Assembly (NCBI GenBank): GCA_035999335.1
Contig: DASYGV010000008.1
Span: forward strand, 3,700 to 67,699
Reading direction: 5' to 3'
Length of the DNA: 64,000 bases
DNA from: Thermoanaerobaculia bacterium
GTDB lineage: Bacteria > Acidobacteriota > Thermoanaerobaculia > Gp7-AA8
In this document: positions 16,211 through 58,702 of the stretch, in pieces
How positions within the stretch are numbered: position 1 is the stretch's first letter
Layout: each line of letters starts with the position of its first letter
Notes under the pieces: generated by a model
Seen by the model: only the letters and a program-made list of their open reading frames with translations
Databases searched by the model: none
Told to the model about the DNA's origin: nothing
Made by a program: the position numbers and the translations under genes

Positions 16211-16238
16211 CGTGACGGGCTGAAGCCCATCCTACGCT

Positions 16239-39704: not shown

Positions 39705-39743
39705 CGGGCGCGGGATTATGGCAGAGGCGTAGAATCTTGCGCG

Positions 39744-42923: not shown

Positions 42924-44843
42924 ATGCCCAACCATCCCGAGATCGAAGCGCCGGCCACCCGTCCCTTGAAGGCATACGCGTTCGACCCGAGCGCAGGGAA
43001 GCTCCTCGGCAACGAGATGACGATGAACGTCCGTTACGAAGAGCTCGAGCCCGGCCCGGTCGTGAAGGTGCCGTTCGAAGCGGAGAAAAGAGGGGAGATC
43101 GAGCGGCGCGGCAACGCGGTCGCGGTCGTCGACTACGACGGCGCGAACAAGACCTACTACCAGCCGGTCGACCTCGACGACCCGCGCATCCTCATTCGCG
43201 GCGGACTCGATCCCAAAGCATGCGATCCTCGCTTCCATCAGCAGATGGTCTATGCGGTCGTCACCGACACGATCCAGCACTTCGAGACCGCACTCGGCCG
43301 GCGGATCCACTGGCGGCGCGCAGAGCGCAAGGCGGGTGCACCCGGCGGACCCAATCCCGATCACATCTGGACACTCAACCTCTACCCGCACGCGTTCATC
43401 GGCCGCAACGCGTTCTATAGCCCGCGCGCGCACGGCATTCTCTTCGGCTACTTCCGCGCGGGGACGGAGAACGTCGGCCGCAATCTCCCCGGCCAGACCG
43501 TCTTCACCTGCCTCTCGCACGACATCGTCGTGCACGAGACGACACACGCAATCATCGACGGAATCCGCAAGTACTTCACTGAGCGGACGAATCCTGATGT
43601 CATCGCGTTCCACGAGGCCCTCGCCGACCTCGCCGCGCTGTTCCGCCACTTCACGCACCGCGAAGTCCTGCGCGACACCATCGAGCGCACGGGCGGCGCG
43701 CTCTACCGCTACCAGCTGAATCCTGAGATCGAAGTTTCCGCGCTCGACGACTACGAGAACAGCGACGACTCCACGAAGCGGAAACTCAGCTCCCAGTACA
43801 CGCGGCGGAACCCGCTCGTCGAGCTCGCGCAGCAGTACGGCGAGGCCACCGGAAAGGAGCAGGCCCTCCGCTCCGCCCTCGGCAGCAAGCCGAACTCCGA
43901 CGACATCAAGAAGATCACCGAGCCGCACAAGCGCGGCTCGATCCTCGTGGCCGCGGTGTTCGACGCGTTCTTCACGATCTATCAGAAACGCACCGCCGAC
44001 TTGTGGCGCATCTTCCGCGCTGGCGGCGGCAGCGACAATCCGACCGACGTCCCCGTGCCGCTTGCAGACCGTTTGTGCGAGGAAGCGACGCGTCTCGCCG
44101 AACAGTTCTTCCAGATCTGCGTGCGCGCACTCGACTACTGTCCGCCGGTCGACATCACTTTCGGCGGGTATCTGCGCGCGCTCGTCACCGCCGATCTCGA
44201 CCTGCGGCCGCGCGACGAAGTCGGCGTGCGCGACGCGATCATGCAGAGCTTCCGCATGCGCGGCATCTATCCCGAAGGCGCGGGATCGTTCTCCGAGGGG
44301 GCGATCGCGTGGCCGACTGCGCAGGCCCTCGACCTCCCACCTGTGAAGGGTCTCGCCTTCGGCGATCCGAATGGACTGACGGCATGCGAGAAGGATGCAA
44401 CCGGCGACGCACTTCGCGAATACCTCAAAGTCGAGGGCGTCCTCGAGAAGCTCAGCTTCGAGAAGGACCACACGATGCCGGTGCTAGTCACGTCCTTCCA
44501 CCCGCTGTTCCGCATCAACGCCGACGGGAGTCTCCGCACGGACATGATCGTGGAGATGGTCCAGACGCGTCAGATCCCGCTGCAGGCAGACGCGCCGGAG
44601 CTCGGCACGATGGCGTTGCGCGGAGGTGCGACGCTCATCATCCGGAAACCGCGAGCCCACGAGCCCGAAGCGAAGCGCAACGAGGCGACGATCTGCTACG
44701 TGATCAGCAAACATCTGAAGGATCCGGACACCGGGGAAGACCGCGCCGACCGGCAGCGCCGCTTCGCGGAATCCCTCGGCCTCGCCGAAGGCAACGATCC
44801 CGAGCGCTTCCAGATCGACTTCGCAATGGTGCACGGAGTCTGA
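42924..44843 (+). CDS. cytoplasmic HExxH gluzincin-like metallopeptidase-fold protein, family not recognised (module 1, gene A)
   Basis: 639 aa, no signal peptide. TCLSHDIVVHETTHAIIDG then FHEALADL, with the Glu 23 residues after the second His. Alignable over its full length with the 567-aa protein at 52398-54101. Confidence 0.8.
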   Translation: MPNHPEIEAPATRPLKAYAFDPSAGKLLGNEMTMNVRYEELEPGPVVKVPFEAEKRGEIERRGNAVAVVDYDGANKTYYQPVDLDDPRILIRGGLDPKACDPRFHQQMVYAVVTDTIQHFETALGRRIHWRRAERKAGAPGGPNPDHIWTLNLYPHAFIGRNAFYSPRAHGILFGYFRAGTENVGRNLPGQTVFTCLSHDIVVHETTHAIIDGIRKYFTERTNPDVIAFHEALADLAALFRHFTHREVLRDTIERTGGALYRYQLNPEIEVSALDDYENSDDSTKRKLSSQYTRRNPLVELAQQYGEATGKEQALRSALGSKPNSDDIKKITEPHKRGSILVAAVFDAFFTIYQKRTADLWRIFRAGGGSDNPTDVPVPLADRLCEEATRLAEQFFQICVRALDYCPPVDITFGGYLRALVTADLDLRPRDEVGVRDAIMQSFRMRGIYPEGAGSFSEGAIAWPTAQALDLPPVKGLAFGDPNGLTACEKDATGDALREYLKVEGVLEKLSFEKDHTMPVLVTSFHPLFRINADGSLRTDMIVEMVQTRQIPLQADAPELGTMALRGGATLIIRKPRAHEPEAKRNEATICYVISKHLKDPDTGEDRADRQRRFAESLGLAEGNDPERFQIDFAMVHGV

Positions 44844-44844
44844 G

Positions 44845-46197
44845 ATGACGACAGAAAAAACAGGCTTGCGCGTACGGATGTATCGCGTCGGGTTCGGCGA
44901 TTTCTTCCTCGTCACCGTTCCCACCGACGACGGGCCGAAACACATCCTCATCGACTGCGGCGTCACGCCGGGCACGACGCACAACGGCGACATCGGCACG
45001 ATCAAAGCTGCCGTCACGCACATGACCGAGGAGACGAACAAAAAGCTCGCGCTGATCATCGTCACCCATCGGCACATGGATCACATCATCGGCTTCAGCC
45101 GCTGCCCCGAGTTCCAAAAGGACTTCACGGTCGAATCGATCTGGATGCCGTATTGGGAATCCGAATACGACGAGGCGGTGAAGTTCCAGGCGGACCTCAC
45201 CGAGCTCGCGACGGACATGCAGCACTACCTCGCCTTCTCCGCGGACAAGAACACCGAGACGAACGAGTTGCTCGGCATGCTGCGCAATGCGACCGGTCTC
45301 GAGGACGATGAGTTGTTCGCCGTCGCGGGCACGACGCCTGGCAAAGGCGGCGGCACCAATGCGAAATCTCTCGCGATGCTGAAGAACGGCTTCGGCGTGA
45401 AGCCGGAGTACTACAAGAAAGGCGACAACCCGAAGCTGCCGAAGAGTCTGGAGAACTCCGGTCTCGAGGCCGTGATCCTCGGCCCACCGCCACCCGACGC
45501 GATGGACTTCATGAAGCTCAACGATCTCAAGAAAGGCGTCGGACAGTATCTCGGCGCCGATGGAGGTTCGACCACGCAGTCGAAGATCTTCGAGCCGTTT
45601 GGAAAGATGTGGCAGACCGACGCCAGTGCGTATCCGGAATCCGCGTTCCGCGAATACGCGCCGCGAGTCGAGGACCCGAACGCGAAGCCCGCGCATGAGA
45701 AGCTCGAAGCGGTGATCAATGCCGCGCAGCCGGCGATTCTCCTCACCGCGGTGAAAGAGCTCGAGCATTCGCTCAACAACCAGAGCCTCGTCGTGCTTTT
45801 CACGTTCAAAGGCAAGAGGCTCCTCTTCGTGGGCGACGCGCAGGCGGGGAACTGGACGTACTGGATGTACGGCGGCACTCCCACGAAGGCGCCCTCGCTC
45901 GATGATCTGTCGGCCGAGGGAAAGAGCGTCCTCGGAAATCTCGACTTCTACAAGGTCGGCCACCATGGCAGCACGAACGCGACGCCGATCACCGCGGTCG
46001 ATGCGATGGGTGGGACGTTCGCGTCGATGTGCTCGACGCAGGCGGATACGTACGGCAACCCCGACAAAGGCACCGAGGTGCCGCGCGATCCGCTGCTCGC
46101 GGCGCTGGCGAAAAAGAGTGCGCTCGTGCGCAGCGACTCTCCGGACGCGCAGGGCAAGTTCGACGTCACTGATCTCTACGTCGACTACGAAATGTAG
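44845..46197 (+). CDS. MBL-fold metallo-hydrolase, ComEC/Rec2-type motifs (module 1, gene B)
   Basis: 450 aa. YRVGFGDFFLV, ILIDCG, THRHMDHIIGF (HxHxDH), FVGDA, YKVGHHGSTNATP. The ATG is 1 nt after the gene A stop. Confidence 0.85.
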   Translation: MTTEKTGLRVRMYRVGFGDFFLVTVPTDDGPKHILIDCGVTPGTTHNGDIGTIKAAVTHMTEETNKKLALIIVTHRHMDHIIGFSRCPEFQKDFTVESIWMPYWESEYDEAVKFQADLTELATDMQHYLAFSADKNTETNELLGMLRNATGLEDDELFAVAGTTPGKGGGTNAKSLAMLKNGFGVKPEYYKKGDNPKLPKSLENSGLEAVILGPPPPDAMDFMKLNDLKKGVGQYLGADGGSTTQSKIFEPFGKMWQTDASAYPESAFREYAPRVEDPNAKPAHEKLEAVINAAQPAILLTAVKELEHSLNNQSLVVLFTFKGKRLLFVGDAQAGNWTYWMYGGTPTKAPSLDDLSAEGKSVLGNLDFYKVGHHGSTNATPITAVDAMGGTFASMCSTQADTYGNPDKGTEVPRDPLLAALAKKSALVRSDSPDAQGKFDVTDLYVDYEM

Positions 46198-46220: not shown

Positions 46221-46233
46221 TTTTGCCAATCCT

Positions 46234-49200
46234 TCAGGGCAACTGGATGGTGATCGTGTTGGTGTTGTTGGTCTCGACGGACTCGTCGACCTCATTCGAG
46301 CTATCCGCGGTCACGTCGATCGTGGTTTGCCCCGAATGCCCGCTCGTCTGCACCGTCACCTCGATCCATCCGTGCGGGGCAAGCGCGGGGGTTTCGACCA
46401 CACCGATGAACGCGTTGCCGTCGATCTGGATCTTCGTCTTCGATGGGGCAGCCGTGGAATCGCCGGTGTTGGAGATCAGTGCGGTCACGGTGAGCTCATC
46501 CGAGGTGCCATGGGAGGGCTCGGCGCGAATCGACGCCACGACCAGATCCGGTTTCTGCGCGGGCGGCGGCGTGTAGTAGACCTGCGTCGACACGACATTG
46601 GACCATCCGCTCGGCAGGCCCACGGGACCCGCCGCGAACGTCGTGCGCACGCGGTAGTAATACATGCCGGTCGAGACGCCGTTGCGGATGTACGTGGTTC
46701 CGGCCGTGGTCGCGAGGTCGGCCCAGTTCGACGATTCGACGCGGACGTCGTCGACGAACCATCCCATCGGAGTCGAACCGGGTTTGTTTTCAGGGCCAGT
46801 GATGAACCGGAAGCGCAGACGGATGGACTTGTCCTTGTAGGCGGTGAGACTGATCGACTGCGGCGTCATCGCCTCCGCGTCGAACGCGAGAGCCGCATCG
46901 GGCGCGAGCGCCGAGCGCGCGCTCTCATACACGGTGTCCCAGTCGAGAGTGCCGTCGTCTTCCGCGATCTGGACGACGACTTTGTCGTCGCTCTCATTCA
47001 TCGACCAATCGGAGAACTCGAGCGTCGCGGTTCCCACCGCAGGAATGGCAATCGGTTGCGCATACGTCAGCGTCGAGGTCGCGTTGGTGGCGCCTTCCGC
47101 CGCACGTCCCCAGAACGAATTCGAGCCGGAGCTCACCTTCAGGCTCGATGTCTCCCAGTTGAACGCGCCCGTGCCCTCGGTCGAAGACACCCACTGGCCG
47201 AGGCCGGACTCCGCATCGTCACTGGCGAGTGAAGCGAGGAATGTCGCTTCCTGCAACTCGTCGGGTCCGGTGGCTCCCGCGGGACGATCCCACGCCAGCT
47301 CGATCTTGCCGTCGGTGTCGGGCTCGGTATGCCCAACGCCGAAACGGAGGACCGGAGGCTGTTTGACGATCGAGCAGTCGGGCGTCACGTCGGCGATCAC
47401 GGTCGCCGTGAGATTCGTCGTGTTGCCGTCGCTCGTGAAGCCGGTGAGGCCCGTGAGCGTCAGGGCGACGCCGGCCGGGAGCTTCCACGTCGCCGACGTC
47501 GCGGTCTGGTAGTTGTCGATGTGTGTACATCCATCGAACTCGTTGTCGTTCGTCCCCAACGTGTACGCGGCGTCATCGAGATTCGGCGTCGCGTTTCCGG
47601 GCTGCGGCTGCGAGTCGACGACGGTCTGCGCGGGCTGATCGGACGCCCCCGTGTTTCCGTAGCCGTGGTTCTCGTCGGTATAGAGGATCGCCAGGCCCGG
47701 CGCCCAGGTCGGATCGCCGCGTTCACTCTGCCCTTTCCCGTCCTTGTCCCAACTGTTCCGGTCACGCACTTCGATGTAATAGGCGTGATCGAGATTCACG
47801 CCATCCGCTGAGCTGACGCGCGAAAAGCCGTTCGGGAAGAGGCGCGTGTGCTCGTCGCTCGACTCGAAGTCGCTTGCGTAAATCTGCTGCGCGCCGGCCG
47901 AGATGTCGATGTCGTCGATGAACCATCCGCGCTTCGCGACCGCGGGATCCGTCGAATAGGCGAAACGAAGCAGCAGTTCCTGTCCCTTGAACGGAGTCAG
48001 GTCGAATTCGTCATCGATCCACTGTGGATCGGGGTAGGTGCCGAGATGGCGGTTCGTATTGGTGAGTGCATTGGCTTCGCCGGACACGCCGGTGATGAAG
48101 TTTCCGTATTGCAGATTGCAGGCGTTGTTGTTCGGATTGAATCCGGTGAGCGTCGTTCCGTTCCTCGAGGCCAGTGAAGTCCAGGTCTGGCCGCCATCGA
48201 CCGACGCGAGCACGAAGGCGTAGTCCCAGTCCCACTCGATCTCGAACAGCGACTTGAACTTCAACGTGATCGCAGGCGCGTTCGCATGCTGAACGAGGTC
48301 AGGGAGGAAGACGTCGAGAGTGTGCCCGGGGCAACCGAAGTCGTCGCCCTGGCCCGAATGCCACGCACGCACACCCGAGGGAACGCTGTCGATCAGCTTC
48401 ACCTTCGGAAGATCGACGCGAAGCGCGTCGGCGTTGTGGATGCCCGGACCCGTCAAGGTGTACGGCGTGCCGTCCGGACGCTTCCAAGTGATCTCGCCCG
48501 TGTCCTTCTTCGACTCCCGCAGCGTGTAGATGCCGTCCGTTGCCTCGAGCGGGACGATCCAGCCGAGATCCTGGCGGCTGAACACCGTCATGAACTGCGC
48601 GTGGTCGCTGCCCATGAGCTCCCACGATCCCATCGTCGCTCGCGAGCCCGTGGAGTAGAAATCGGGCAGGCCGAGGGAGTGGCCGTATTCGTGCGCGATG
48701 ACGGACATCTTCTCCACGGCGGATTCAGGATTCACGTTGTACGGTCCGACGCGGATGAAAACCGGGATGCCCGTGTAGGTGGTCGTCATCTCCCTGCGCG
48801 AGCTGTCCGTCCACCACATCACCTGACCTTCGTGATTGCGAAGCATGTCGTTCGAGACATAGCCCTGCTCGCCGTTCGCGTCGGTGAAGTAGTACTGAAG
48901 ATCGGACTTGTGCGGCCAGACGTTGTTGATCCCGGTCACGCTCGTGTTGCCATTGCCGCCGTCGCCCGCGAACATCAGGTTGAAGAAATCGACGACTCCG
49001 TCCTTGTCGGTGTCGAAGTCGTTGTAGTCGAGGTCGGGATCGGCGAGCGATGCGGCGTCATAGACGATCTTTGCCGTCGGTCCGCACGCATCGTCGACTC
49101 CGAACAACAATCCCTGTCCCGTCAGCGCGCCGAGAAGCGCGTGACCGGTCTTGTCCGCACCGTAGTAACCCTGCGTGCCCGGAAGCAGGTACCAACCGTT

Positions 49201-50046
49201 CTCGATGCGATTTGCATACAACGGAGTCCCCTTCAGCGGCGCGAGAGTCTGGCCCGTGCAGGTTCCGCCCGGGCTGAGGCTGGAGAACTTGTGGTTGTAG
49301 GTCGCATCGAAGGGCTTCGTCGTCGAGCCGACCGCCGGACGAACGAACCCAACCGGCGAAAGCTGTCCAAACGACATGTCCTGATACAACTGCCACAGAC
49401 TCTTGCCGGAGGTCTTCGAATTCACGGCGGCATCGAGGGCCTGCGCAGTGTGATTCCCGGTGCATTCCTCATACGGCTGACCGGGTCCCGTGCAGTGTTT
49501 GATGTCCTGGTACTGCACCATGACGACCGGAAACGGCCGCTCGCCATAGCGCGCGGTCTGAAGCGTCGTCACCTTCGGTCCCATCGTCTTTGCAGCAACC
49601 GCCTGAGGGATTCCCGTGACGGACGCGGTGAGGCTCGCGTTCGCGGAGAGATCTTTCCAAATGATCTCGGGGTCCTGATCGAGATCGAGCGCCTTCGCAC
49701 GAATCAGAATGCGCCCGCTCCCGTTGGGAGCCAGGATTCCGACGTTCCACGTCAAAGGTGAAGCCGGAGTGCCGATTCCGGAGTTGGGTGCAGGCGTGGC
49801 GTTCACGAAGACGGCCGATGCCGGCAAAGTGACCTTGACGACCACGGAAGTTGCACCCGCGGCACCCGCGTCGTATTGCACAAAAAACGGGTAGGTCTCC
49901 CCGGGCTGGACCCATCCGTAGGCGGAGTTGAACTTCGCAGCAAGTTTTACCGCCTGCCCGTGGGCGGCGGCGGATCCGAAGACCAGGACTGCTAACACTA
50001 GGTAAAACAAGGACTTCCTGCCGGACTGCGGCTTCCCGATGTTCAT
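46234..50046 (-). CDS. secreted M6 (immune inhibitor A-like) metallopeptidase, 1271 aa, with C-terminal CARDB-like domain
   Basis: ORF trimmed to MNIGKPQSGRKSLFYLVLAVLVFGSAAAHGQ. VIAHEYGHSLGLPDFY (HExxHxxGxxD M6 motif). The C-terminal PDLVVASIRAEP...TVTALISNTGDSTA segment is CARDB-like. Confidence 0.85.
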   Translation of the reverse strand: MNIGKPQSGRKSLFYLVLAVLVFGSAAAHGQAVKLAAKFNSAYGWVQPGETYPFFVQYDAGAAGATSVVVKVTLPASAVFVNATPAPNSGIGTPASPLTWNVGILAPNGSGRILIRAKALDLDQDPEIIWKDLSANASLTASVTGIPQAVAAKTMGPKVTTLQTARYGERPFPVVMVQYQDIKHCTGPGQPYEECTGNHTAQALDAAVNSKTSGKSLWQLYQDMSFGQLSPVGFVRPAVGSTTKPFDATYNHKFSSLSPGGTCTGQTLAPLKGTPLYANRIENGWYLLPGTQGYYGADKTGHALLGALTGQGLLFGVDDACGPTAKIVYDAASLADPDLDYNDFDTDKDGVVDFFNLMFAGDGGNGNTSVTGINNVWPHKSDLQYYFTDANGEQGYVSNDMLRNHEGQVMWWTDSSRREMTTTYTGIPVFIRVGPYNVNPESAVEKMSVIAHEYGHSLGLPDFYSTGSRATMGSWELMGSDHAQFMTVFSRQDLGWIVPLEATDGIYTLRESKKDTGEITWKRPDGTPYTLTGPGIHNADALRVDLPKVKLIDSVPSGVRAWHSGQGDDFGCPGHTLDVFLPDLVQHANAPAITLKFKSLFEIEWDWDYAFVLASVDGGQTWTSLASRNGTTLTGFNPNNNACNLQYGNFITGVSGEANALTNTNRHLGTYPDPQWIDDEFDLTPFKGQELLLRFAYSTDPAVAKRGWFIDDIDISAGAQQIYASDFESSDEHTRLFPNGFSRVSSADGVNLDHAYYIEVRDRNSWDKDGKGQSERGDPTWAPGLAILYTDENHGYGNTGASDQPAQTVVDSQPQPGNATPNLDDAAYTLGTNDNEFDGCTHIDNYQTATSATWKLPAGVALTLTGLTGFTSDGNTTNLTATVIADVTPDCSIVKQPPVLRFGVGHTEPDTDGKIELAWDRPAGATGPDELQEATFLASLASDDAESGLGQWVSSTEGTGAFNWETSSLKVSSGSNSFWGRAAEGATNATSTLTYAQPIAIPAVGTATLEFSDWSMNESDDKVVVQIAEDDGTLDWDTVYESARSALAPDAALAFDAEAMTPQSISLTAYKDKSIRLRFRFITGPENKPGSTPMGWFVDDVRVESSNWADLATTAGTTYIRNGVSTGMYYYRVRTTFAAGPVGLPSGWSNVVSTQVYYTPPPAQKPDLVVASIRAEPSHGTSDELTVTALISNTGDSTAAPSKTKIQIDGNAFIGVVETPALAPHGWIEVTVQTSGHSGQTTIDVTADSSNEVDESVETNNTNTITIQLP

Positions 50047-50148
50047 ATGCTGTTCGACCCTTCTTCTCTCGCTTTTGGTAGTGTTACCACTACCCTGCCC
50101 GGCGCAAGGCACAAAGGGTGCCAGTTCTCAGGAGTCTGCGAGTGAGGC

Positions 50149-50228
50149 CGGATCGGATCGATGGACGCGTTCCATCGCGGCCTGGAAAGCCTGTCAATCC
50201 GCGTGGTCTGAAGCCTTCAGCGGGGCGA
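50149..50228. repeat. ~80-bp direct repeat, copy 1 (flanks the Uma2 gene)
   Basis: Hand alignment to 50925-51002 gives about 70 of 80 positions identical with two 1-nt gaps. Shared core: GTTCCATCGCGGCYTGGAAAGCC...TGGTCTGAA...TTCAGCGGGGCGA. Confidence 0.75.
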
Positions 50229-50255
50229 TGAGGGATGAGGGTTGCGTCGAAACCG

Positions 50256-50831
50256 TCAGGGCACTGCGCTGTTGCGGTAGATCTCGTCGACGAACAACTC
50301 CGCGCTCAACGAAGGAACTGCGACGCTCCCGCCCTTGACCGCGTCTCGGGCGGTCCAACCGCCCATCGATTCGCGGAAGTGGATCGTGATTCGTCGTTCG
50401 CGATGCGACACGATCACATACTCGCGAATGCTCGGGATCGTCCGGTAGTACTCGAGCTTCAGGCCGGTGTCGTAGTCCTCCGATGAGTCACTCGTCACCT
50501 CGACGAGAATCGTCGGATTGAGAGCCGTGACATTGGGACTGGGGTCGTGTTGCTGAAGCGGTCCGCAAATCACCGACACATCCGGAAACGTGGCCAGACC
50601 GACGCTTTCCACGTAGATCCGCAGATCCGAGGTGTGCACGCGACTCGGACGATCTCCGACGGCGTTGCCGAGCGCCCAGACCATCGTCGCCGCGAGAGCC
50701 GAATGCTCCTCGGAACCGCCGGCCATCGCATAGATCTCGCCATCGAGGAACTCATGTTTTTCGGCGGACACCATCTCCAGCGCGACGTAGTCGGCATACG
50801 TGTATCGATGGAGTCGGCGCGTCTCACGCAT
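50256..50831 (-). CDS. Uma2-family (DUF820) restriction-endonuclease-fold protein
   Basis: ORF trimmed to MRETRRLHRYTYADY. HEFLDGEIYAMAGG, PDVSVICG, TILVEVTSDSS and LKLEYYRTIPSIREYVIV. Confidence 0.85.
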   Translation of the reverse strand: MRETRRLHRYTYADYVALEMVSAEKHEFLDGEIYAMAGGSEEHSALAATMVWALGNAVGDRPSRVHTSDLRIYVESVGLATFPDVSVICGPLQQHDPSPNVTALNPTILVEVTSDSSEDYDTGLKLEYYRTIPSIREYVIVSHRERRITIHFRESMGGWTARDAVKGGSVAVPSLSAELFVDEIYRNSAVP

Positions 50832-50924
50832 CGAGGCGATTCTACGCGGAAACGCAGGCAGGCCAACGAACAAGGCCACCGTTGCCGGTGGCCTGCGAAC
50901 ATTCCTGCTGGAGCCGAGTAAGGT

Positions 50925-51002
50925 CGGATCGATCGATGGAGGTGTTCCATCGCGGCTTGGAAAGCCCGTCACACCGGTGGTCTGAAACTTTCAGCGGGGC
51001 GA
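50925..51002. repeat. ~80-bp direct repeat, copy 2 (overlaps the last 12 nt of the MBL gene at 50991)
   Basis: See copy 1. Its final tcagcggggcga is the stop plus the last three codons (SPR) of the MBL gene. Confidence 0.75.
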
Positions 51003-52397
51003 GCGTTTCCTGCCGCGGAACTTCACTGTGATTTCCTTGACCAGCCCCGCCTCGCCTTTTCCTTTGCAGTCGGTGGTCGAGTGATAGTCACTGCGCGCCT
51101 TGAGCTCGGCGACGAGCGTCTTGCGCGGCACTTCCGTGTGCGAATCCGTGTCGCCATGTTTGCCCCGTCGCGTCGACATCAGCGTCACGATCTTCGGCTT
51201 GTTTTTGAACAGCTCCCAAAGCGGTTTCGGCGTGGCGTTGAGACTTCCGTGATGACCGACCTTGTACAAGTTCGTCGCGCGGAGCCGCCTGCGCATCGCG
51301 ACCCGATTCTTCGCGTGGTTCAACGCGTAGTCCCAGTTCTCGATTTGCGCGTCGCCCGGAAAAAGGAGCAGCTTGCCGTTCACTTCGAACAGAAGAATGA
51401 GACTCGTGTTGTTCAGCGTGCCGTCGATGATCCGTACGAGCTCGAGCAGCTGCTTTGCCTGCGCCTGGCGCAGCTTGCGTACAAACCAGCGCACCGACTT
51501 CGGCAGCGCGTCTCCCTGCACCGACGGCGCGTCCGGAAAGAGCTTCTCGACGGTGAGCTCCGCGCTCACGCGCGTGGCCGCGGCCTGAAGGCTCCAGTAC
51601 TGGTCCGACTCCTTTGCGTACGAACGGACTTCCGGATGATCCTCGATCGTCGGCGGTCCAAGGACGTGCACCTTCACGCCCGGGAGGACTACACCCGCGA
51701 GCGCGGTCTTCATGCCGTACGACAACCATTCGTGCGCCCTGCCCATCGCCTGCAGATTGCGTACGGCGGCGAGGTTCTTGAGGTTCGTTTCGCCGAGGAA
51801 CCCGAGACGGCTGACGAGCGTGCGCCCCACGCCGAGCTGGCCGACCATCGCGCGGTCCGGTTGCGGCTCCGGCGACTCCTCTTCGGCGACGTCGTTCTCG
51901 GCCTCGTCTTCCAATTCCTCGAACTCGTGTGCCTTGACGCGCGCGACGACTGCCTTCGCTACGTTTTGCATCGAATCGAGCGATCGGGCGTGGAGCGCGG
52001 AGAACGCCTTCCCGTCGGTTCGTGCGGCGCCACGTCCCCGCACGGCGCCTCGCGGCAGCTCCGGGTCCTCGGTCCACGGCTGGATGATCAGTGCGTTTTC
52101 GCTGATGCTCCTGATGACGTCGCCCGGACCTTTGCCGTTCGCACGCGGCGTGAACCCGCTGATGTGATCCGCGTGACGATGCGTCACGATCACCGCGTCG
52201 AGCCGCCCCCCGGTGATCTTCTTGATGTTGGCCGCGGTGTCATCCATCTGCGACTCGCGCCGCTCTGGAGCCGCCGTCGAGCCGAAGTCGATCAGGATGT
52301 GCCGTTCGCGATCGTTCTTGTAGCGGAACGTCAACAGGAAGCAGTCGCCAAACCCAACGTTGTACATCCGGATGCGGACATCGACCGGACTCGCCAT
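50991..52397 (-). CDS. MBL-fold metallo-hydrolase, ComEC/Rec2-type motifs (module 2, gene B)
   Basis: 468 aa. YNVGFGDCFLL, ILIDFG, THRHADHISGF, FPGDA, YKVGHHGSLNATPK. Paralogue of 44845-46197. Its start codon directly abuts the stop codon of gene A (0-nt spacer). Confidence 0.85.
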   Translation of the reverse strand: MASPVDVRIRMYNVGFGDCFLLTFRYKNDRERHILIDFGSTAAPERRESQMDDTAANIKKITGGRLDAVIVTHRHADHISGFTPRANGKGPGDVIRSISENALIIQPWTEDPELPRGAVRGRGAARTDGKAFSALHARSLDSMQNVAKAVVARVKAHEFEELEDEAENDVAEEESPEPQPDRAMVGQLGVGRTLVSRLGFLGETNLKNLAAVRNLQAMGRAHEWLSYGMKTALAGVVLPGVKVHVLGPPTIEDHPEVRSYAKESDQYWSLQAAATRVSAELTVEKLFPDAPSVQGDALPKSVRWFVRKLRQAQAKQLLELVRIIDGTLNNTSLILLFEVNGKLLLFPGDAQIENWDYALNHAKNRVAMRRRLRATNLYKVGHHGSLNATPKPLWELFKNKPKIVTLMSTRRGKHGDTDSHTEVPRKTLVAELKARSDYHSTTDCKGKGEAGLVKEITVKFRGRKRSPR

Positions 52398-54101
52398 CTA
52401 CCACTCCTCCTCGGGGCGTTTCTTCGATCGCGTGGCGCGCCGAAGATGCAGGCTCGAGATCGACAGGCGCGCCGTGGACTCTCCGCGCAACGCGCCCGAC
52501 TCCCACAGGAAGTCGAGTCGTTTCTGCTGCTGCTCGACGCTGCGCAGCGGGTTGTACACGTGATACTTGAGGTGGCCGTATTCGTCGAAGATCAGCGCGC
52601 CGCCGCCGAACAGACGCAGCTTCTTCTCGTCCGGCATTCCCTCCGGCTTGCGCATGTCGAGGGAGTCGAGCTCCGACGCCAGCGGCTCGAGGATCTGCAC
52701 GTATTCGCAGACCGTCTCATGGAGCACGAATCCGTCGGAGCCGACGCGCATGCACGGACGCACCGTGGTCACACGCGTGAACGCTTCCGGGTGCAGGCCG
52801 AGGTCGCGGCGGTTCTCCCAGACAAAATGAAACACCTCGTCGTGATCGCGCCGCATCGCGTCGAAATGCGTCCGCGAGTAGTCGAGCTTCTCCGGCGCCG
52901 CCTTCCAGTACCCATCCGCCGTACCCGACGCCGGCTTGATCCCGAACGCCTGGAACGCCGATCGAACGCACGCGCGCAACTCATACCGCGTGTCGGCCGG
53001 CCGGATCTCGCGATCGGCGGTCAGGAGCGCGGAAAGGTAATCGCCGAATGTGACATCGACCGGCGGCGCGTAGTCGAGCGCCCGAATCGCGGAGGTGAGG
53101 AGGCAGTCCGCGATGTCCGCTCCTTCTTCGATCGCGCGCGAGCGATCGACGCGCGTGCGATCGCGAATCAGGGCCGTCAGACGCCGGCTCCACATCTCCA
53201 CAAACGCCGTCAGCATCGCCGCGACGAGGATCTCTCCGCGGCGATGCGCCTCCACGAATTCCTCGTCCTTATGGTAATGATCGGGACTCGGTGCGAGGTC
53301 ACGCATCGAATGCCGCAGCGGGCCGCGCACCAGATTCAATTCGTCGCCGACCTGTTCCGCCAATCCGAAGATCATGTTCTTTCGCAACGCTTCGCGAGAG
53401 AGATCCTTCGTGCTCAAAGGAGCGTCGCCGCGGCCGCGATCGATGGTGCTCGCGATGACTGCCGGCAGCGAGAACACGGACAGGAGCGCAACCACGTCCG
53501 CGAATCCTTCGTGGAACGCGGCTTGATCGGCCGACGACGGCTCGCGGTAGCGCTCCCGGAGTCCGTCGATGAGCGCGTGCGTCGTTTCGTGCACGATGAT
53601 GTCGTGGGAGAGACAGGTGAACACCGGCGCCCCGCCCTTGCCCGGGAAGTAGCCGAACAGAAGCGCGTTGAGCTGGTCGGAGTAGAACGCATTCGCCTCC
53701 GAGAACGCGTGCGGAGCGACTTTGAGCTGATGGCCGTCGAATCCCCAGTTGATGCGGCGGCCGAGGGCGAGCTCGAAGCGGCTGAGCGTCTTCATCACCA
53801 GCGCGTAGACGTTGTGCCGGTGGAACTCCGGGTCGCGAACGAGCTTGTCTCCCAGACCCTCTTTCGGTTGCTTCGACCAGCGATCGGGATCGATCCGGGA
53901 GGCGGGCGTGTAGAGCGTATCCGTCGCTGCGTCGAAGTCGACGACTTCGACGCGGTATCCGACCGGCCCGGGACTCAGCTTCTCGGCTGGAATGGTGATC
54001 TGGGCCAGCAGGATCTCGCCGTCGACGCGAACGGTCGGATCCTGCGCGATGATCGTGACGCTACGCTCCCGCGGCGGCGGCAGTGCGGCAGATTCCTTCA
54101 T
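52398..54101 (-). CDS. cytoplasmic HExxH gluzincin-like metallopeptidase-fold protein (module 2, gene A)
   Basis: 567 aa, no signal peptide. TCLSHDIIVHETTHALIDG then FHEGFADVVALL. It shares LxPGPV, VVDxDxA..T.Y.P, FE.ALGRRI.W, RG.ILVAA and ALDYxPPVDxTFGxYL blocks with 42924-44843. Confidence 0.8.
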   Translation of the reverse strand: MKESAALPPPRERSVTIIAQDPTVRVDGEILLAQITIPAEKLSPGPVGYRVEVVDFDAATDTLYTPASRIDPDRWSKQPKEGLGDKLVRDPEFHRHNVYALVMKTLSRFELALGRRINWGFDGHQLKVAPHAFSEANAFYSDQLNALLFGYFPGKGGAPVFTCLSHDIIVHETTHALIDGLRERYREPSSADQAAFHEGFADVVALLSVFSLPAVIASTIDRGRGDAPLSTKDLSREALRKNMIFGLAEQVGDELNLVRGPLRHSMRDLAPSPDHYHKDEEFVEAHRRGEILVAAMLTAFVEMWSRRLTALIRDRTRVDRSRAIEEGADIADCLLTSAIRALDYAPPVDVTFGDYLSALLTADREIRPADTRYELRACVRSAFQAFGIKPASGTADGYWKAAPEKLDYSRTHFDAMRRDHDEVFHFVWENRRDLGLHPEAFTRVTTVRPCMRVGSDGFVLHETVCEYVQILEPLASELDSLDMRKPEGMPDEKKLRLFGGGALIFDEYGHLKYHVYNPLRSVEQQQKRLDFLWESGALRGESTARLSISSLHLRRATRSKKRPEEEW

Positions 54102-54230: not shown

Positions 54231-54263
54231 TAAAACAGCGACGCCGGCCTCACGGCCGGCGTC
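54231..54263 (-). terminator. intrinsic terminator downstream of tRNA-Thr
   Basis: On the minus strand: GACGCCGGCC-GTGA-GGCCGGCGTC followed by GCTGTTTTA. Confidence 0.6.
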
Positions 54264-54277
54264 GATCAAGATTCATC

Positions 54278-54353
54278 TGGAGCCGTTGACCGGACTTGAA
54301 CCGGTGACCTGCTGATTACGAATCAGCTGCTCTACCAACTGAGCTACAACGGC
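54278..54353 (-). tRNA. tRNA-Thr (anticodon CGT)
   Basis: Hand-folded: GCCGTTG acceptor, GCTC/GAGC D-stem, GCTGA-TTCGTAA-TCAGC anticodon arm, ACCGG-TTCAAGT-CCGGT T-arm, encoded CCA. Confidence 0.9.
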
Positions 54354-54493: not shown

Positions 54494-57400
54494 ATGATCG
54501 TCGTCCCCCGCTGTGCAGCGCTTGCCGCGCTGGTTGTCCTTCTCGCTCTTCCTCTTGCCGCGCAGCAGAATCCGTGGGATGCGCCGGCATTCACCGCCGA
54601 CCCGAAAGCGCTGATCGCCGCCGCCGGACGCGTCGAAGCCGGCGACTACTCCGTGGTCATGCTCCTCGACGAAGCCGAATACGTCGTCGGCGCCGAGGGC
54701 GAAACGCGCAGCCGCGAGCGCGTCATGCTTTACGTCGTCACCGACGCCGGCGTCGAATGGTCGAGCGAAGTCCGCGCGCCGTGGGCGCCGTGGCACGACG
54801 AGCGTCCCACGATCGAAGCGCGCGTCGTCACGCGCGACGGCAACGTCGTCCCGCTCGACCAGAGCGCGGTCGTCGAAGTCCCGGCCGGCGAAGAGACCGA
54901 CATCTTCAGCGACGGCCGCGTCCTTCGCGCGCCGCTCCCCGCCGTCGCCACCGGCTCGGTCATCGAATACGTCATCACGCGCGCCGGCAGAAATCCCATC
55001 CCCGGCGCGGGCACGGCCATCCACTACAACTTCGGCGGCTACCTGCCGATCGAGCGCACGCGCGTCACCATCGACGCGCCGCTGACCGTCGACCTGCGCG
55101 TCGTCAACCAGACCGGCGTCGAGCCTCGCCTTGACGAGAAAAACACAGAGAAAGACGGCCGCCGCCGCACCGTGTACGAGGCCGCACGCATCGAGGGAAC
55201 GCGCGAGCTCGACGAGTACGTGCCCTACGACGTCGCCGTGCGGCGCTACCTCGCCTTCTCCACCGGAAAGTCGTGGCAGAACATCGCCACCAGCTACTCC
55301 GCGATCGTCGACAAGCAGATCGCCGACGGCGACCTCCAGAAACTCGTGCGCGGTGCGGTCGGCACCGCCACCGACCGCAAGGAAGTCGTTGCGCGACTCC
55401 TCGCCGCGATCCAGAAAGACATCCGCTACGCCGGCATCGAGATCGGCGAAGGCTCGATCGTCCCGCGCACGCCGCGGCAGGTGCTCGCGAACCACTACGG
55501 CGACTGCAAGGACAAAGCGTCGCTGCTCGTGGCCATGCTCCGCCTGTCCGGCTTCTCCGCGCACGTCGCGCTCCTCAACGCCGGGAGCGGCTTCGACACG
55601 CAGCCCGAGCTCCCTGCGCTCAGCTACTTCAATCACGCCATCGTCGTCGTCGATGAATCAACGACGGGCGAGCCCGCGATCTGGGTCGATCCGACCGACG
55701 TCTTCGCGCGCGCCGGCGAATTGCCGCAACTCGACCAGGGCCGCATGGCGCTGATCGCGAGACCGGAGACGACGACGCTCACTCGCACGCCCGAGATCGA
55801 GTCGACGGCGCACGTCTATCGCGAGCTGCGCACGTTTTATCTCCCCGAGGACGGCAAGGCGCGCGTGGTAGAGATCACGGAGCCGAGCGCAACCACCGAG
55901 GCAAGCCTGCGCCGCTGGGTCACCGGCTTCGATCCGAAGAGACTGCGCGAGCAGATCGAAGAGTACGCGAAGTCCGCGTACGTCGCGAAAACGCTCACGC
56001 GCTACGAAACGACCGAGTCGAAAGATCTCACCAAGCCGTTCCGCCTGACCGTGGAAGTGCCCGAATCCGGGAGCAGCAGCGTTGGAAACGGCGAAGGGGC
56101 CGTGATCATCAACCTCGCGTCGCTGCCGCAGAACGTTCCGAACACGCTGCGCGACTGGAAGGAAGTGGAGCCCGGCGAGAGCCCCGACGACGCACCGAAG
56201 AAGCGGACGCACGACTTCCTCTTCCCGCAGCCGGGCGTGCGCGAATGGGTGTATCGGATCGTGCCGCCGGTCGGATACCTGCCGCGGACGCTTCCCGCGA
56301 ACGAGACGAAGAACATCGGAACGACGAAGTTCTCGCAGGAGCTTCGCACCGAGGCGGACAACACCGTCGTCGCGACGTTCCGCTTCGACAGCGGCAAGCG
56401 CCGCATCACGCGCGCCGAGTTCGAGGAGACACGGGTCGCGTTCACGAAGTTCGTCACGACCAACACCGTCACGATCGGCTTCGAGATGGCCGGCCAGTCG
56501 AAGCTGAACGCCGGCGACGTCCGCGGCGCGCTCGACGAGTTCCGGCGTCTGGCCGCGCTGCATCCGAAAGAAGCGCAGCACCACATCGAGACCGCGCGCG
56601 CACTGCTCGCAGGCGGCCTCGGCGACGCGGCCCGCGACGAGATCCGCCGCGCCGTCGCCATCGAGCCGAAGAACGCGCGGGCGCATCAGATGTTCGGTTA
56701 CATCCTCCTCCACGACTCTCTCGGACGCATGTACCGCAAAGGCTTCGATCTGAAGGGCGCCATCGCCGCGTATCGCAAAGCGAAGGAGCTCGACTCCGAC
56801 GACTATGCGATCCGCTCCTCGTTCGCGAACGTGCTTTCGTACGGCGAAGACGGTTATCGCTTCGGCCGCGGCGCGCGTCTCACCGAAGCCGTCGACGAGG
56901 TCCTGGCGATGGCCAAGGACCTCGGCGAAGGAGGAAAGCCGATGCTCCCCGAGCTCGCGCTGCTCTATTCGCACATGGGCCGTTTCGCCGACGTGCGGAC
57001 GCTCGCACCGACGCTCGAGGACACACGGCAGCGCGACATGGCCAGCGTCCTCGCCACCGCGTCGCTCGACGGCGCCGAGGCCGCGGTCCGCGAGCTCGGC
57101 GCGTTTGACCAGCAGCGCAAGCGCACATACGCGTCCAACGTCGCGCAGACGTTGCTGGCGCTGCGTCTCTATCCGCAGGCCGCCGCGCTGATGGACGTCG
57201 CCACGCAAGGCACCGCCGCCGCCGCCGAGCAGAGGCAGGCCATCGACCTGTTCAAGAAGCTGAAGCGAGTCGAAGACACACCACAGGACAACGGACCTCG
57301 CGGCGTGGTCGCGAAGTTTTTCGACGCGTTGATGATGAAAGACGTCGCGATGCTCAGGCAGCTCCTCCCCGCCGAATACATGAACGGCGACGACGATCCG

Positions 57401-58603
57401 CTTCACGAGCTCGCGGAGATGGACCTGCGCCCGCCGGACGAGATTCCCGTGCCGGTCTTCCGTGATCTGCTCGCGATGGTGTTCGAGGTGCAGCAGGACG
57501 GCGATGACGAAACCGGCTACCGGCTGCGGTTGCGCGCGATGGGCGCAGCCGCCGCGAACGACGAGATGGCGCTTTTCGTGCGGCGCGAGAACGGCAGCTG
57601 GCTCATTCGCGGCGCAACGAACGGCGAGGAATTGAACGGCTTCACCGTTCTCGGCATGGCGGCGAAAGGAGAGCTCGAGCCGGCGCGCAAGTGGCTGAAC
57701 TGGACGCGCGAAGATGCGACCGGCGGCACGAGCGACGATCCTCTCGATGGCGATCCGTTCGCGGCGCTCTGGCCGAAGTCGAAGGCGACCGCCACCATCG
57801 AGGAGATCCGGCTCGCCGCGGCTTCGCTCGCGACGGACAAGTACAGCTGGGCGCAGAGCGAGCCGATTCTCGTCGCGGGGCGCGAGCAGGCAGCGAGCGA
57901 GCAGGCGAAGGCCGCGATCGATCTCGCGCTCGTCAAGATCTATCAGGGCCGCAAGGACTGGCCGCGCATGCTCGAAGCGACCTCGCGGCTCGTCGCATCC
58001 AACGCCGATTCGGCAACCGCATTCTCGACCCACATCGAAGCGCTGCTGCGGAACGGAAAGACATCTGAGGCTACGGCGCTTGCGCAAAAACGCCTCGAGC
58101 GGCTGCCCGAAGACCGCGAAGCCGTGCGCGCGCTTGCGCTCAGTGCGGCCGAGACCGGCGACTACACCGCGGCGCAGCAGTACGCGGTCAAGGTCGTCGA
58201 CGAGCTCCGTCCAAAGGACGACGACTTCACGCACGCGGCTTGGATCGCGCTCTTCACCGGCAATCAGCTCGAGCGCGCCATCGAGCACGCGCAGCGAGCG
58301 TCCCAGCAGAAGAAAGAGAAAGAGAACAAGGAGCAACCGCTGCCCGCGCTGGCCGCGCTCTACGCCGAGACCGGCCGAAGCGTGGAAGCACGCACCGCGT
58401 TGCTGCAGGGCATCGACGACACGAGCGCCGGCGTCCTGCACGACGGCGACTGGTACGTCCTCGGGCGCATCGCCGAGAACTACGGCGTCGACGACTACGC
58501 GATCACGGCCTACCGCAAGGTCGGCAAGAAAGGCGACGGCGCCGCGACCGTAAACGAGCTCGCGCAGCGTCGCCTCGACGGGCTGGTGAAGAAAAAGAAG
58601 TAA
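54494..58603 (+). CDS. large secreted transglutaminase-like (DUF3857 + transglutaminase core) protein with TPR-rich C-terminal half
   Basis: Signal peptide (AALAALVVLLALPLAAQ). HYGDCKDKASLLVAMLRLSG (transglutaminase-core Cys). Many TPR-like helical repeats in the C-terminal ~700 aa. Confidence 0.75.
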   Translation: MIVVPRCAALAALVVLLALPLAAQQNPWDAPAFTADPKALIAAAGRVEAGDYSVVMLLDEAEYVVGAEGETRSRERVMLYVVTDAGVEWSSEVRAPWAPWHDERPTIEARVVTRDGNVVPLDQSAVVEVPAGEETDIFSDGRVLRAPLPAVATGSVIEYVITRAGRNPIPGAGTAIHYNFGGYLPIERTRVTIDAPLTVDLRVVNQTGVEPRLDEKNTEKDGRRRTVYEAARIEGTRELDEYVPYDVAVRRYLAFSTGKSWQNIATSYSAIVDKQIADGDLQKLVRGAVGTATDRKEVVARLLAAIQKDIRYAGIEIGEGSIVPRTPRQVLANHYGDCKDKASLLVAMLRLSGFSAHVALLNAGSGFDTQPELPALSYFNHAIVVVDESTTGEPAIWVDPTDVFARAGELPQLDQGRMALIARPETTTLTRTPEIESTAHVYRELRTFYLPEDGKARVVEITEPSATTEASLRRWVTGFDPKRLREQIEEYAKSAYVAKTLTRYETTESKDLTKPFRLTVEVPESGSSSVGNGEGAVIINLASLPQNVPNTLRDWKEVEPGESPDDAPKKRTHDFLFPQPGVREWVYRIVPPVGYLPRTLPANETKNIGTTKFSQELRTEADNTVVATFRFDSGKRRITRAEFEETRVAFTKFVTTNTVTIGFEMAGQSKLNAGDVRGALDEFRRLAALHPKEAQHHIETARALLAGGLGDAARDEIRRAVAIEPKNARAHQMFGYILLHDSLGRMYRKGFDLKGAIAAYRKAKELDSDDYAIRSSFANVLSYGEDGYRFGRGARLTEAVDEVLAMAKDLGEGGKPMLPELALLYSHMGRFADVRTLAPTLEDTRQRDMASVLATASLDGAEAAVRELGAFDQQRKRTYASNVAQTLLALRLYPQAAALMDVATQGTAAAAEQRQAIDLFKKLKRVEDTPQDNGPRGVVAKFFDALMMKDVAMLRQLLPAEYMNGDDDPLHELAEMDLRPPDEIPVPVFRDLLAMVFEVQQDGDDETGYRLRLRAMGAAAANDEMALFVRRENGSWLIRGATNGEELNGFTVLGMAAKGELEPARKWLNWTREDATGGTSDDPLDGDPFAALWPKSKATATIEEIRLAAASLATDKYSWAQSEPILVAGREQAASEQAKAAIDLALVKIYQGRKDWPRMLEATSRLVASNADSATAFSTHIEALLRNGKTSEATALAQKRLERLPEDREAVRALALSAAETGDYTAAQQYAVKVVDELRPKDDDFTHAAWIALFTGNQLERAIEHAQRASQQKKEKENKEQPLPALAALYAETGRSVEARTALLQGIDDTSAGVLHDGDWYVLGRIAENYGVDDYAITAYRKVGKKGDGAATVNELAQRRLDGLVKKKK

Positions 58604-58626: not shown

Positions 58627-58702
58627 GCGCCCTTAGCTCAGTGGATAGAGCAGCGGTCTTCGGAACCGCGGGTCGGGGGTTCGAATCCCTCAGGGCGCGC
58701 CA
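58627..58702 (+). tRNA. tRNA-Arg (anticodon TCG)
   Basis: Hand-folded: GCGCCCT acceptor, GCTC/GAGC D-stem, GCGGT-CTTCGGA-ACCGC anticodon arm, GGGGG-TTCGAAT-CCCTC T-arm, encoded CCA. Confidence 0.9.

Follow-up and report, generated by a model that had tools for sequence, protein, structure and literature searches.

The stretch of DNA analysed here (the window; 64,000 nucleotides, positions 3,700 to 67,699 of contig DASYGV010000008.1 in the Thermoanaerobaculia bacterium assembly GCA_035999335.1) carries two diverged copies of a two-gene pair, in which a gene for a predicted zinc metalloprotease (protein A) is followed directly by a gene for a protein with a metallo-beta-lactamase (MBL) fold (protein B). 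Gene A2 (52398..54101, minus strand) encodes a predicted cytoplasmic thermolysin-like (gluzincin) metalloprotease of 567 residues that carries the motifs HETTH...FHEGFAD, and gene B2 (50991..52397, minus strand) encodes an MBL-fold protein of 468 residues, a predicted DNA nuclease of the ComEC type that we propose is made as a pro-nuclease. The other copy consists of A1 (42924..44843, plus strand), whose 639-residue product is an A2 paralogue of a different subfamily (HETTHAIIDG...FHEALADL), and B1 (44845..46197, plus strand), which is separated from the A1 stop codon by a 1-nt spacer and encodes a 450-residue MBL paralogue of B2 with the motifs HRHMDH, GDAQ and YKVGHHGS. None of the four open reading frames (ORFs) is disrupted, and each retains its catalytic motifs.

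On the minus strand the A2–B2 junction reads GAG GAG GAG TGG TAG ATG GCG, with the TAG stop codon of A2 (52400-52398) abutting the ATG of B2 (52397-52395), leaving a spacer of 0 nt. An earlier note, made from the sequence alone, had reported the two reading frames, their coordinates, this spacer, their motifs and the proximity of a tRNA-Thr gene, and each of these is present in the sequence as described. A Shine-Dalgarno-like sequence, GAGGAGGAG (52404..52412, minus strand), lies inside the last codons of A2, and its position within the 3′ end of that gene indicates translational coupling of B2 to A2, to judge by the sequence. This arrangement is common among related loci, where a Shine-Dalgarno-like motif occurs at positions -18 to -4 of B in 111 of 146 and the distance from the A stop codon to the B start codon falls between -4 and +4 nt in 103 of 146. 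The usual C terminus of an A2-type protein is E-x-W (EEW, EGW, EQW, EVW and others; the tail codons of A2 are at 52401-52409), and in the same 111 loci the nucleotides of this tail double as the ribosome-binding site of B. The conserved tail could thus have a function in the protein (autoinhibition or docking), serve as the ribosome-binding site, or do both.

The A2–B2 pair is bracketed by two hairpins. A tRNA-Thr(CGT) gene found by ARAGORN (54278..54353, minus strand), which is a landmark 176 nt upstream of A2 and no component of the pair, is followed by a GC-rich terminator hairpin identified by a terminator scan (54264..54239, minus strand). Roughly 100 nt past the B2 stop codon is a terminator-like hairpin (50873..50894, minus strand) whose stem has 9 pairs (7 of them GC) and whose T tail is weak; it is a consensus match only. 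Because it is enclosed in this manner, A2–B2 looks like a bicistronic unit. For the other copy, public gene calls start B1 at Met12 (44878 rather than 44845), which is 11 codons later and gives 439 instead of 450 residues. We favour the longer form because the residues just before Met12 match those of B2 (LRVRMY in B1, VRIRMY in B2) and a GGAG sequence lies 9 nt before 44845.

Protein A matches no family above threshold in Pfam, NCBIfam, PADLOC or PHROGs. Pfam Peptidase_M4 (PF01447) scores 13.9 bits on A2 against a gathering cutoff of 22.4 and gives no hit on A1, such that neither protein belongs to M4 by sequence, and a search of Protein Data Bank (PDB) sequences returned one chance-level match only. 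More than 7,500 database relatives exist, nearly all of them named ‘hypothetical’. Because the family and PDB sequence searches gave nothing, the fold was taken from an AlphaFold model. The A2 AlphaFold2 model, built on 44 sequences, has a predicted local distance difference test (pLDDT) score of 82 and a predicted template modelling score of 0.87. When compared with the PDB using Foldseek, this model matches vibriolysin (3nqz_B), fungalysin (4k90), thermolysin (1kei), aureolysin and protealysin with E values from 5.6e-5 to 7e-3 (prob 1.0), and its template modelling (TM) scores against thermolysin-family structures are 0.48-0.56 when normalised to the target.

The predicted active site of A2 comprises the zinc-binding and catalytic motif H171-E172-T-T-H175 (codons 53577..53591, minus strand) and a third ligand, E198 of FHEGFAD (53510-53508). 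An alignment of 44 sequences, which includes A1 and spans both subfamilies, shows no variation at H171, E172, H175, E198 or H286. Protein A therefore displays the M4-type hallmark of HExxH with a downstream Glu ligand on a thermolysin two-domain fold, and a conserved His corresponds to the transition-state His of thermolysin. The N termini of the A proteins lack a hydrophobic segment, with a maximum 15-residue Kyte-Doolittle value of at most 0.97 versus 2.42 for the neighbouring secreted M6 peptidase. Pfam detects no FTP/PepSY propeptide in A, and the architecture is accordingly not that of a secreted pre-pro-enzyme; it detects no serine or cysteine protease domain either. On the basis of the Foldseek matches, the invariant zinc and catalytic residues and the absence of a hydrophobic N terminus, protein A is predicted to be a cytoplasmic thermolysin-fold zinc endopeptidase of the gluzincin type. 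It has the fold, the HExxH motif with its downstream Glu ligand and the conserved His in common with the thermolysin peptidases (MEROPS M4, and the M36 fungalysins), but differs from them in having no signal peptide or FTP/PepSY propeptide, in its predicted cytoplasmic location, in its sub-cutoff Pfam M4 score, in an extra C-terminal domain and in always being paired with a nuclease gene.

This extra alpha/beta domain (residues ~400-567; 52401..52904, minus strand) lies outside the thermolysin fold and ends with the E-x-W tail. It is the part that has diverged most between A1 and A2, and the BLAST alignment of the two proteins stops at A2 residue 390. Alignment by MAFFT nevertheless recovers a few invariant positions in it: P449, R452, D456, G457, G499 and G500. 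The ~170-residue domain of A2 has no family match and no significant Foldseek match, the NTF2/SnoaL-like hits having a prob of at most 0.15. We consider it a candidate sensor or substrate-docking domain.

B2 matches Pfam Lactamase_B (9e-9), and its best PADLOC matches are LmuA of the MBL type (4.7e-21), Avs1a (1.1e-12) and DRT RTasMBL (5.3e-11), such that the families it resembles most strongly are MBL effectors from Lamassu, AVAST type 1 and a DRT system. NCBIfam ComEC_Rec2 also matches B, far under the family cutoff. For the B2 AlphaFold2 model (pLDDT 77.7), the best fold match in the PDB is the beta-lactamase-like domain of ComEC (9ic4; E = 3.7e-7, target-normalised TM 0.62), and the same entry is the best PDB sequence-profile match. 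The metal-binding motif H73-R-H75-A-D77-H78 (HxHxDH; codons 52164..52181, minus strand) is accompanied by D349 (51353-51351) and H382-H383-G-S (51254-51243). No variation is seen at H73, H75, D77, H78, D349, H382 or H383 among 44 aligned sequences that include B1, and these residues are at least 90% conserved in 65 locus-derived sequences; the motifs HxHxDH, GDAQ and HHGS are all invariant. Protein B is thus predicted to be a ComEC-type MBL nuclease. It shares the VGxGD, HxxxDH and KVxHHGS motifs with the ComEC/Rec2 beta-lactamase-like nuclease domain (PDB 9ic4, 30bt), and differs from it in standing alone as a soluble protein that lacks a membrane channel and an OB domain and has ~190 residues added between the motifs.

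These added residues are evident from the distance between HxHxDH and HHGS, which is 305 residues in B2 compared with ~115 in ComEC 9ic4, and they fall into two segments. Insertion 1 (residues ~111-220; 51738..52067, minus strand) has no counterpart in the ComEC MBL domain and consists of two loops and two helices in alternation: a disordered loop at 111-133 is followed by a helix, and an acidic loop specific to the lineage (159-190) by a conserved helix (191-217). Its pLDDT drops below 50 at residues 111-114, 116-133 and 165-190, its alignment is gappy and poorly conserved, and B1 and B2 have no detectable similarity over residues 84-204. Insertion 2 (residues ~255-330; 51408..51635, minus strand) forms two long helices around a loop (280-299) that holds an invariant F287 (in LFP) and P299. 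The pLDDT here is 61-68 over residues 251-290, and R303 is invariant along with F287 and P299. It can be argued, from motif spacing only, that the two insertions lie where the known gating loops of defence MBLs lie. We therefore view both as candidate gating segments by analogy, with insertion 1 also being a candidate cleavage target. A tblastn search of plasmids with B2 did not reach the trypsin-associated Avs1a-type MBLs.

In the loci surveyed that have room for both, genes A and B were never found apart. A scan seeded with A and restricted to one genome per species yielded 80 loci, 3 of which end at a contig edge, and a B homologue lies directly downstream on the same strand in all 77 loci with room for one. 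These loci come from Acidobacteriota, Pseudomonadota (Pseudomonas, Cupriavidus, Mesorhizobium, Sphingomonas and others), Mycobacterium, Myxococcota, Planctomycetota, Chloroflexota, Nitrospirota, Gemmatimonadota and further groups. In the reverse direction, A lies upstream of B in 72 of 72 B-seeded metagenome loci with upstream room, and every substantial plasmid hit has both genes. Sinorhizobium/Ensifer plasmid hits that resembled ‘A without B’ proved to be ~110-residue matches around HExxH in unrelated peptidases, which are no members of the family. The distance matrices of A and B are correlated (Mantel r = 0.51, compared with a maximum of 0.35 in 2000 permutations), which reflects the shared history of adjacent genes and by itself is no proof of protease–substrate co-adaptation. 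Subfamily pairing is concordant in 154 of 154 loci (148 A2/B2, 6 A1/B1 and 0 mixed), and A1 relatives likewise have a B1-type MBL gene downstream. One protein of 1271 residues (P0382) is a single-chain A–B fusion in which HETTH...HEGFAD is followed by HRHADH...GDAQ...HHGS. When 1.84 billion cluster representatives were searched with a profile, 4708 family clusters at 50% identity were recovered, and the distribution among phyla is patchy.

Selection has acted to preserve both genes. The ratio of nonsynonymous to synonymous substitution rates (dN/dS) is 0.14-0.19 for A2, when compared with relatives whose proteins are 77-83% identical, and 0.16-0.31 for B2 (66-79% identical), which corresponds to purifying selection. 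The earlier note had argued that A and B form a functional two-component unit, and the linkage in 77/77 and 72/72 loci, the Mantel correlation and the subfamily concordance bear this out. None of the patterns that it held would speak against such a unit appears: neither gene occurs alone in the loci or substantial plasmid hits surveyed, the distance matrices and subfamilies agree, and the invariant catalytic residues and dN/dS values well under 1 give no sign of pseudogene decay. We are highly confident that A and B constitute a dedicated protease–nuclease unit.

The two copies in the window are only distantly related to each other. A1 and A2 are 36% identical over 463 columns (BLAST, E = 3e-65), with only the first ~390 residues of A2 aligning, and B1 and B2 align in two blocks (44% over 79 residues, E = 1e-14; 29% over 262 residues, E = 4e-21). 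Every motif block that the earlier note listed as common to the copies is visible in the A1/A2 and B1/B2 alignments. A1/B1 and A2/B2 fall into different large subfamilies, and relatives with 77-83% identity to A2 occur in genomic settings that are unrelated, none with an A1–B1 pair nearby. Because these close relatives reside elsewhere without A1–B1, we favour independent acquisition of the two copies, in keeping with the previous suggestion that they are either old duplicates or separate arrivals.

Two reports from 2025 established defence-associated ComEC-like MBLs as gated pro-nucleases, in which two insertions block the active site (PMC12799240; 10.1101/2025.11.14.688446). A linked and co-evolving protease cuts once per insertion to yield a Zn-dependent DNase that causes abortive infection; in Canu this protease is a caspase, and in fusions with Hachiman HamA or Avs sensors it is trypsin-like (PMC12799240; 10.1101/2025.11.14.688446). 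Evans et al. distinguish three MBL clades, whose partner proteases are of the trypsin, caspase and S8 types, and describe an alpha/beta-hydrolase zymogen as well (10.1101/2025.11.14.688446). The A partner class lies outside these three protease clades (trypsin-like, caspase-like and S8 subtilisin-like).

By analogy with the trypsin–MBL and caspase–MBL modules, we consider it somewhat probable that A2–B2, and independently A1–B1, is a self-contained mobile two-gene cassette for abortive infection directed against phages or mobile elements, in which A cleaves the gating insertions of B. The A–B pair would probably then be a metalloprotease version of the protease-activated MBL pro-nuclease modules. 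We propose this model because all the bioinformatic hallmarks of these modules are present in the pair, apart from its protease being a metalloprotease and no known sensor being attached. If the proposal holds, A and B would be co-translated from one transcript, and B would be made as an inactive proenzyme whose active site is gated by the ~190 residues in two segments. Activation of A would follow an infection cue, which its variable C-terminal domain probably reads, and the activated protease would cut the gating insertions of its cognate B, after which the freed nuclease would degrade DNA indiscriminately. About one relative in three also encodes a patatin, DUF2235, phospholipase D (PLD) or phospholipase C (PLC) lipase, which would provide a second effector, and the two diverged pairs of the window would represent orthogonal protease/substrate pairs that respond to different triggers.

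The closest parallels are the trypsin–MBL modules (HamMAB Hachiman, Avs1/Avs2/Avs4-MBL, Lamassu and DRT variants) described by Tuck et al. (Science 2025, PMC12799240) and Evans et al. (10.1101/2025.11.14.688446), which have in common with A–B a ComEC-like MBL with intact ligands and two insertions between the motifs. Obligate linkage to and co-inheritance with a protease, mobility and occurrence in defence islands, the last of which is only suggested for A–B, are likewise shared, as is homology of B to Avs1a, LmuA-MBL and RTasMBL at the level of hidden Markov models. The modules differ in that their protease is a serine protease, whereas A is a thermolysin-fold zinc metalloprotease with no fused STAND, HamA, RT or other sensor. 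Furthermore, their nuclease gene is upstream rather than downstream and their MBL has ~390 residues compared with 450-470 for B, which forms a separate clade. Canu (CanABC; PMC12799240) resembles A–B in having the protease gene upstream of the MBL gene, a standalone locus and accessory genes of unknown function. Canu differs in using a caspase-family cysteine protease with an Ig-like domain together with CanB, whereas A–B lacks a third conserved gene and has a gluzincin whose C-terminal alpha/beta domain is unrelated.

The S8-associated MBL clade 3 of 10.1101/2025.11.14.688446 probably overlaps the outer part of the A superfamily, although the window proteins have no S8 domain and a metalloprotease domain is not mentioned in the text of that report. 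A relative on the Methylorubrum extorquens plasmid pCMU01 (locus L084, 4726-7824), named a 1032-residue ‘S8 family serine peptidase’, is a true fusion of S8 and thermolysin-like domains with both motif sets. Its C-terminal ~600 residues are 40% identical to A1 and keep HETTH...FHEAFAD, and an MBL gene follows, such that the published S8 clade may touch the A superfamily.

Several points weigh against activation of B by A as the function of the pair. B scores below the cutoffs of the characterised families (NCBIfam Avs1a, 53.2 bits against 420; 6A-MBL, 37.6 against 220; PADLOC LmuA, 73 bits with partial coverage), and because the Avs1a, LmuA-MBL and 6A-MBL scores are so far under, B is best regarded as a separate clade. 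A metalloprotease–MBL pair is not described in the literature found by full-text search, including both 2025 studies, a trypsin–MBL preprint and a 2026 NAR survey. Every characterised protease–MBL module in these sources has a sensor, be it a STAND NTPase, HamAB, RT, pAgo or another. By contrast, no recognisable sensor (STAND, helicase or nucleotide cyclase) is fused or adjacent to A, and no third gene is conserved beyond the optional lipases, in 160 loci. When the flanking ORFs of the 80 A-seeded loci were clustered in search of a universally conserved third gene, as a possible sensor, nothing recurred but shadow ORFs and the optional genes for patatin, DUF2235 and astacin proteins. In ~60 genome loci, the genes that directly adjoin the pair are mostly ordinary and heterogeneous, with few known defence genes among them, and the association of the family with defence islands is anecdotal. 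As noted above, the Mantel correlation alone is no proof that protease and substrate have co-adapted.

A bolder version of the proposal accommodates the missing sensor by making A a one-protein sensor-protease. The C-terminal domain would sense a phage component directly, or the E-x-W tail would hold A shut, and A would license MBL nuclease and lipase zymogens at once. The window pairs would be mutually orthogonal, and the family would constitute a fourth branch of proteolysis-gated immunity, one that is based on a metalloprotease and needs no separate sensor. We regard this extended version as speculative and rather doubtful.

A different reading reverses the logic, as in a toxin–antitoxin-like addiction module. 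B would be constitutively toxic, A would degrade, trim or bind it, and B would be freed once A is no longer made, whether after plasmid loss or after phage-induced shut-off of the host. Tight translational coupling with the protease gene first, the obligate pairing and the frequent location on large conjugative plasmids all suit such a module, which also requires no dedicated sensor. However, experiments have shown that homologous MBL effectors are activated, not destroyed, by their proteases (PMC12799240; 10.1101/2025.11.14.688446), and B has large insertions at the place where, by motif spacing, the known gating loops lie. The stable single-chain A–B fusion also fits poorly with constitutive degradation of B by A, and we judge the addiction module to be unlikely.

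The proposal that A activates B can also be set against a role of the two proteins as independent effectors or enzymes of one system that obey a common signal. Protein A would cleave a host or phage protein, and B would attack DNA. There is precedent for the former activity in Lit of Escherichia coli e14, an intracellular HExxH zinc metalloprotease that acts as a phage-triggered suicide switch by cleaving EF-Tu and has no nuclease partner. The fold family of Lit, Peptidase_U49, is unrelated to the fold of protein A. Patatin, DUF2235 and PLD genes join many A–B operons, as in multi-effector conflict systems, and defence proteases without an effector are reported in the discussion of 10.1101/2025.11.14.688446. 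Nevertheless, the concordance of subfamilies in 154 of 154 loci, the A–B fusion and the disordered insertions of B are what a dedicated protease–substrate pair predicts, and independent effectors usually swap freely, whereas B is never replaced in 149 loci. Independent action thus seems improbable to us.

The lipase genes themselves are variable partners. Among the 89 loci with sequence on both sides, 29 have a same-strand patatin or DUF2235/Tle1-like lipase gene next to the pair, with matches to Patatin or PF09994 T6SS_Tle1-like_cat (E = 2e-70). On a Bradyrhizobium plasmid, a PLD gene replaces the lipase gene beside the pair, and the PLC variant occurs as a fusion. Proteins P0363, P0463 and P0382 represent fusion architectures, which besides A–B place a Zn-dependent phospholipase C N-terminal to A (935 residues) or join DUF2278 to A (807 residues). 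Since Tle1/DUF2235, patatin and PLD lipases are typical of type VI secretion (T6SS), and M4-type proteases are classically secreted virulence factors, the genes could be thought to form an exported toxin set directed at other bacteria or at a host. Yet there are no signal peptides, hydrophobic N termini or, by Pfam, FTP/PepSY propeptides, and the neighbourhood tables of the loci contain no T6SS, PAAR, VgrG or immunity genes. Moreover, most loci have no lipase gene, and the pair is present in Mycobacterium and Chloroflexota genomes; we know of no type VI secretion in the phyla to which these belong. The pair shows no sign of secretion, and export is very unlikely in our estimation.

Cleavage of B by A in the service of defence would be in keeping with the company that the pair keeps on some replicons. 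The pair is frequent on large conjugative plasmids, and the A–B cassette is horizontally mobile and moves as a unit. A PADLOC scan of immediate neighbours gave few defence matches only (PtuB, HamA, PDC-S01 and a subtilase). In the closest genome relative (locus L001), a Septu PtuB gene is immediately upstream of the pair. On a Rhizobium phaseoli plasmid the pair adjoins a CBASS cyclase and a SAV_2336-type protein, on an Agrobacterium tumefaciens plasmid it directly precedes Hachiman DUF1837 and helicase genes with DUF3800, GIY-YIG and restriction genes around, and on the Methylorubrum plasmid it lies between SIR2 proteins. Other plasmid copies are near CHAT or caspase genes. The contexts of the relatives 77-83% identical to A2 include a Y1 transposase; an SNF2-type helicase with an AAA_21 ATPase and a Uma2 nuclease; and a CHAT protein with an ABC/nSTAND-like ATPase. 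The homology of B to MBL effectors, the variable lipase partners, these plasmid defence neighbours and the patchy cross-phylum distribution lend good, though circumstantial, support to the resemblance to immune or conflict loci that the earlier note saw in the A–B pairs. A phage-borne origin of the cassette is unsupported, as no A homologue was found in IMG/VR viral contigs and A has no PHROG match.

A housekeeping or catabolic role would instead assign the pair to peptide and nucleic-acid scavenging, to RNase Z/BN-type RNA processing with a helper peptidase, or to some link with the neighbouring M6 peptidase. The Joint Genome Institute (JGI) label ‘ribonuclease BN’ on several B relatives points in this direction, as does the position of the window pairs, which flank an M6 InhA-like peptidase gene; astacin-like peptidases flank six other loci, and most immediate neighbours are metabolic genes. 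These neighbours are not conserved, however, and close relatives occur in unrelated contexts. Patchy distribution, plasmid location and multiple copies are further features that speak against housekeeping, and by fold B is closest to the DNA nuclease domain of ComEC, not to RNase Z, whose family scores for B are negligible (12.7-15.5 bits against cutoffs of 252-315). We consider a housekeeping role the most improbable of the alternatives. Each of the four is less consistent with the data than is activation of B by A.

Several other features surround the two pairs. Between them is the gene for the M6 ‘immune inhibitor A’ (InhA)-like secreted metallopeptidase (46234-50112, minus strand; 1292 residues), which has MAM-like and CARDB domains. 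The astacin genes of the six other loci encode astacin+PPC peptidases and lie on the same strand as the A–B pairs that they flank. Directly 3′ of B2 is a Uma2-family gene (PF05685, ‘putative restriction endonuclease’; 50256-50972, minus strand; E = 9.7e-27), which apparently belongs to a separate transcription unit, as the terminator-like hairpin (50894..50873) and a promoter-like site (50866..50839) lie in between. A second Uma2-family gene is located at ~39700-40301 (plus strand), and in an 83%-identical relative (locus L096) a Uma2 gene adjoins the A–B pair as it does in the window. Between tRNA-Thr and tRNA-Arg(TCG) (58627-58702) lies a gene (54494-58603, plus strand) for a 1369-residue protein with DUF3857, a transglutaminase-like core and many TPR repeats, which is kept in identical public contigs.

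The GC content is 0.61-0.64 across ~44000-52000, a region that covers both pairs next to tRNA-Thr, compared with 0.65-0.67 in the flanks. The slightly reduced GC content applies to the ~11 kb between A1 and A2, in which the M6 peptidase gene and a Uma2 gene are also located. A second copy of the tRNA-Thr 3′ 23-mer is absent from the window in a search that allowed up to 3 mismatches, and no integrase is present among the ORFs and Pfam hits of the window from 38 to 64 kb. We rejected an integration island at tRNA-Thr because a direct repeat of the tRNA 3′ end and an integrase are both missing, and the GC dip alone is seen.

The A1-type subfamily is large, and NCBI names some of its members ‘peptidase M4’. 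In some of its operons the order is A-B-A′, with a second A paralogue that is 46-47% identical to A1 (L087, 8001-13081; L089, 8001-13329), and L089 has a further A copy a few kb away (14748-17983) with an astacin-like gene between the A copies. Tandem A–A single-chain fusions of ~1100-1200 residues also occur (for example, P0402), and we regard the gene for protease A as having been repeatedly duplicated. A relative on a Phyllobacterium zundukense plasmid (L178, 4860-6692) that is named ‘serine protease’ is a divergent HEFGH gluzincin with no evident serine-protease domain. On examination, the public names ‘serine protease’ for A relatives and ‘ribonuclease BN’ for B relatives were uninformative.

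Proteolytic licensing of bacterial suicide effectors was not established until 2025, and then solely with serine and cysteine proteases that are attached to sensors already known. If the proposed activation of B by A is true, this licensing logic would extend to a fourth protease class, in a very widespread clade that includes Pseudomonas and rhizobial plasmids. The family is very large (the 4708 clusters noted above) and essentially unannotated, with its protease side absent from Pfam, NCBIfam and PADLOC, and thousands of ‘hypothetical protein’ genes would gain a testable function. The pair would also offer a minimal two-gene system for how a protease is triggered without a STAND or helicase sensor. 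The optional lipase genes are a test case for one protease licensing two kinds of effector, and the presence of A1–B1 and A2–B2 in one genome provides a natural test case of protease–substrate orthogonality.

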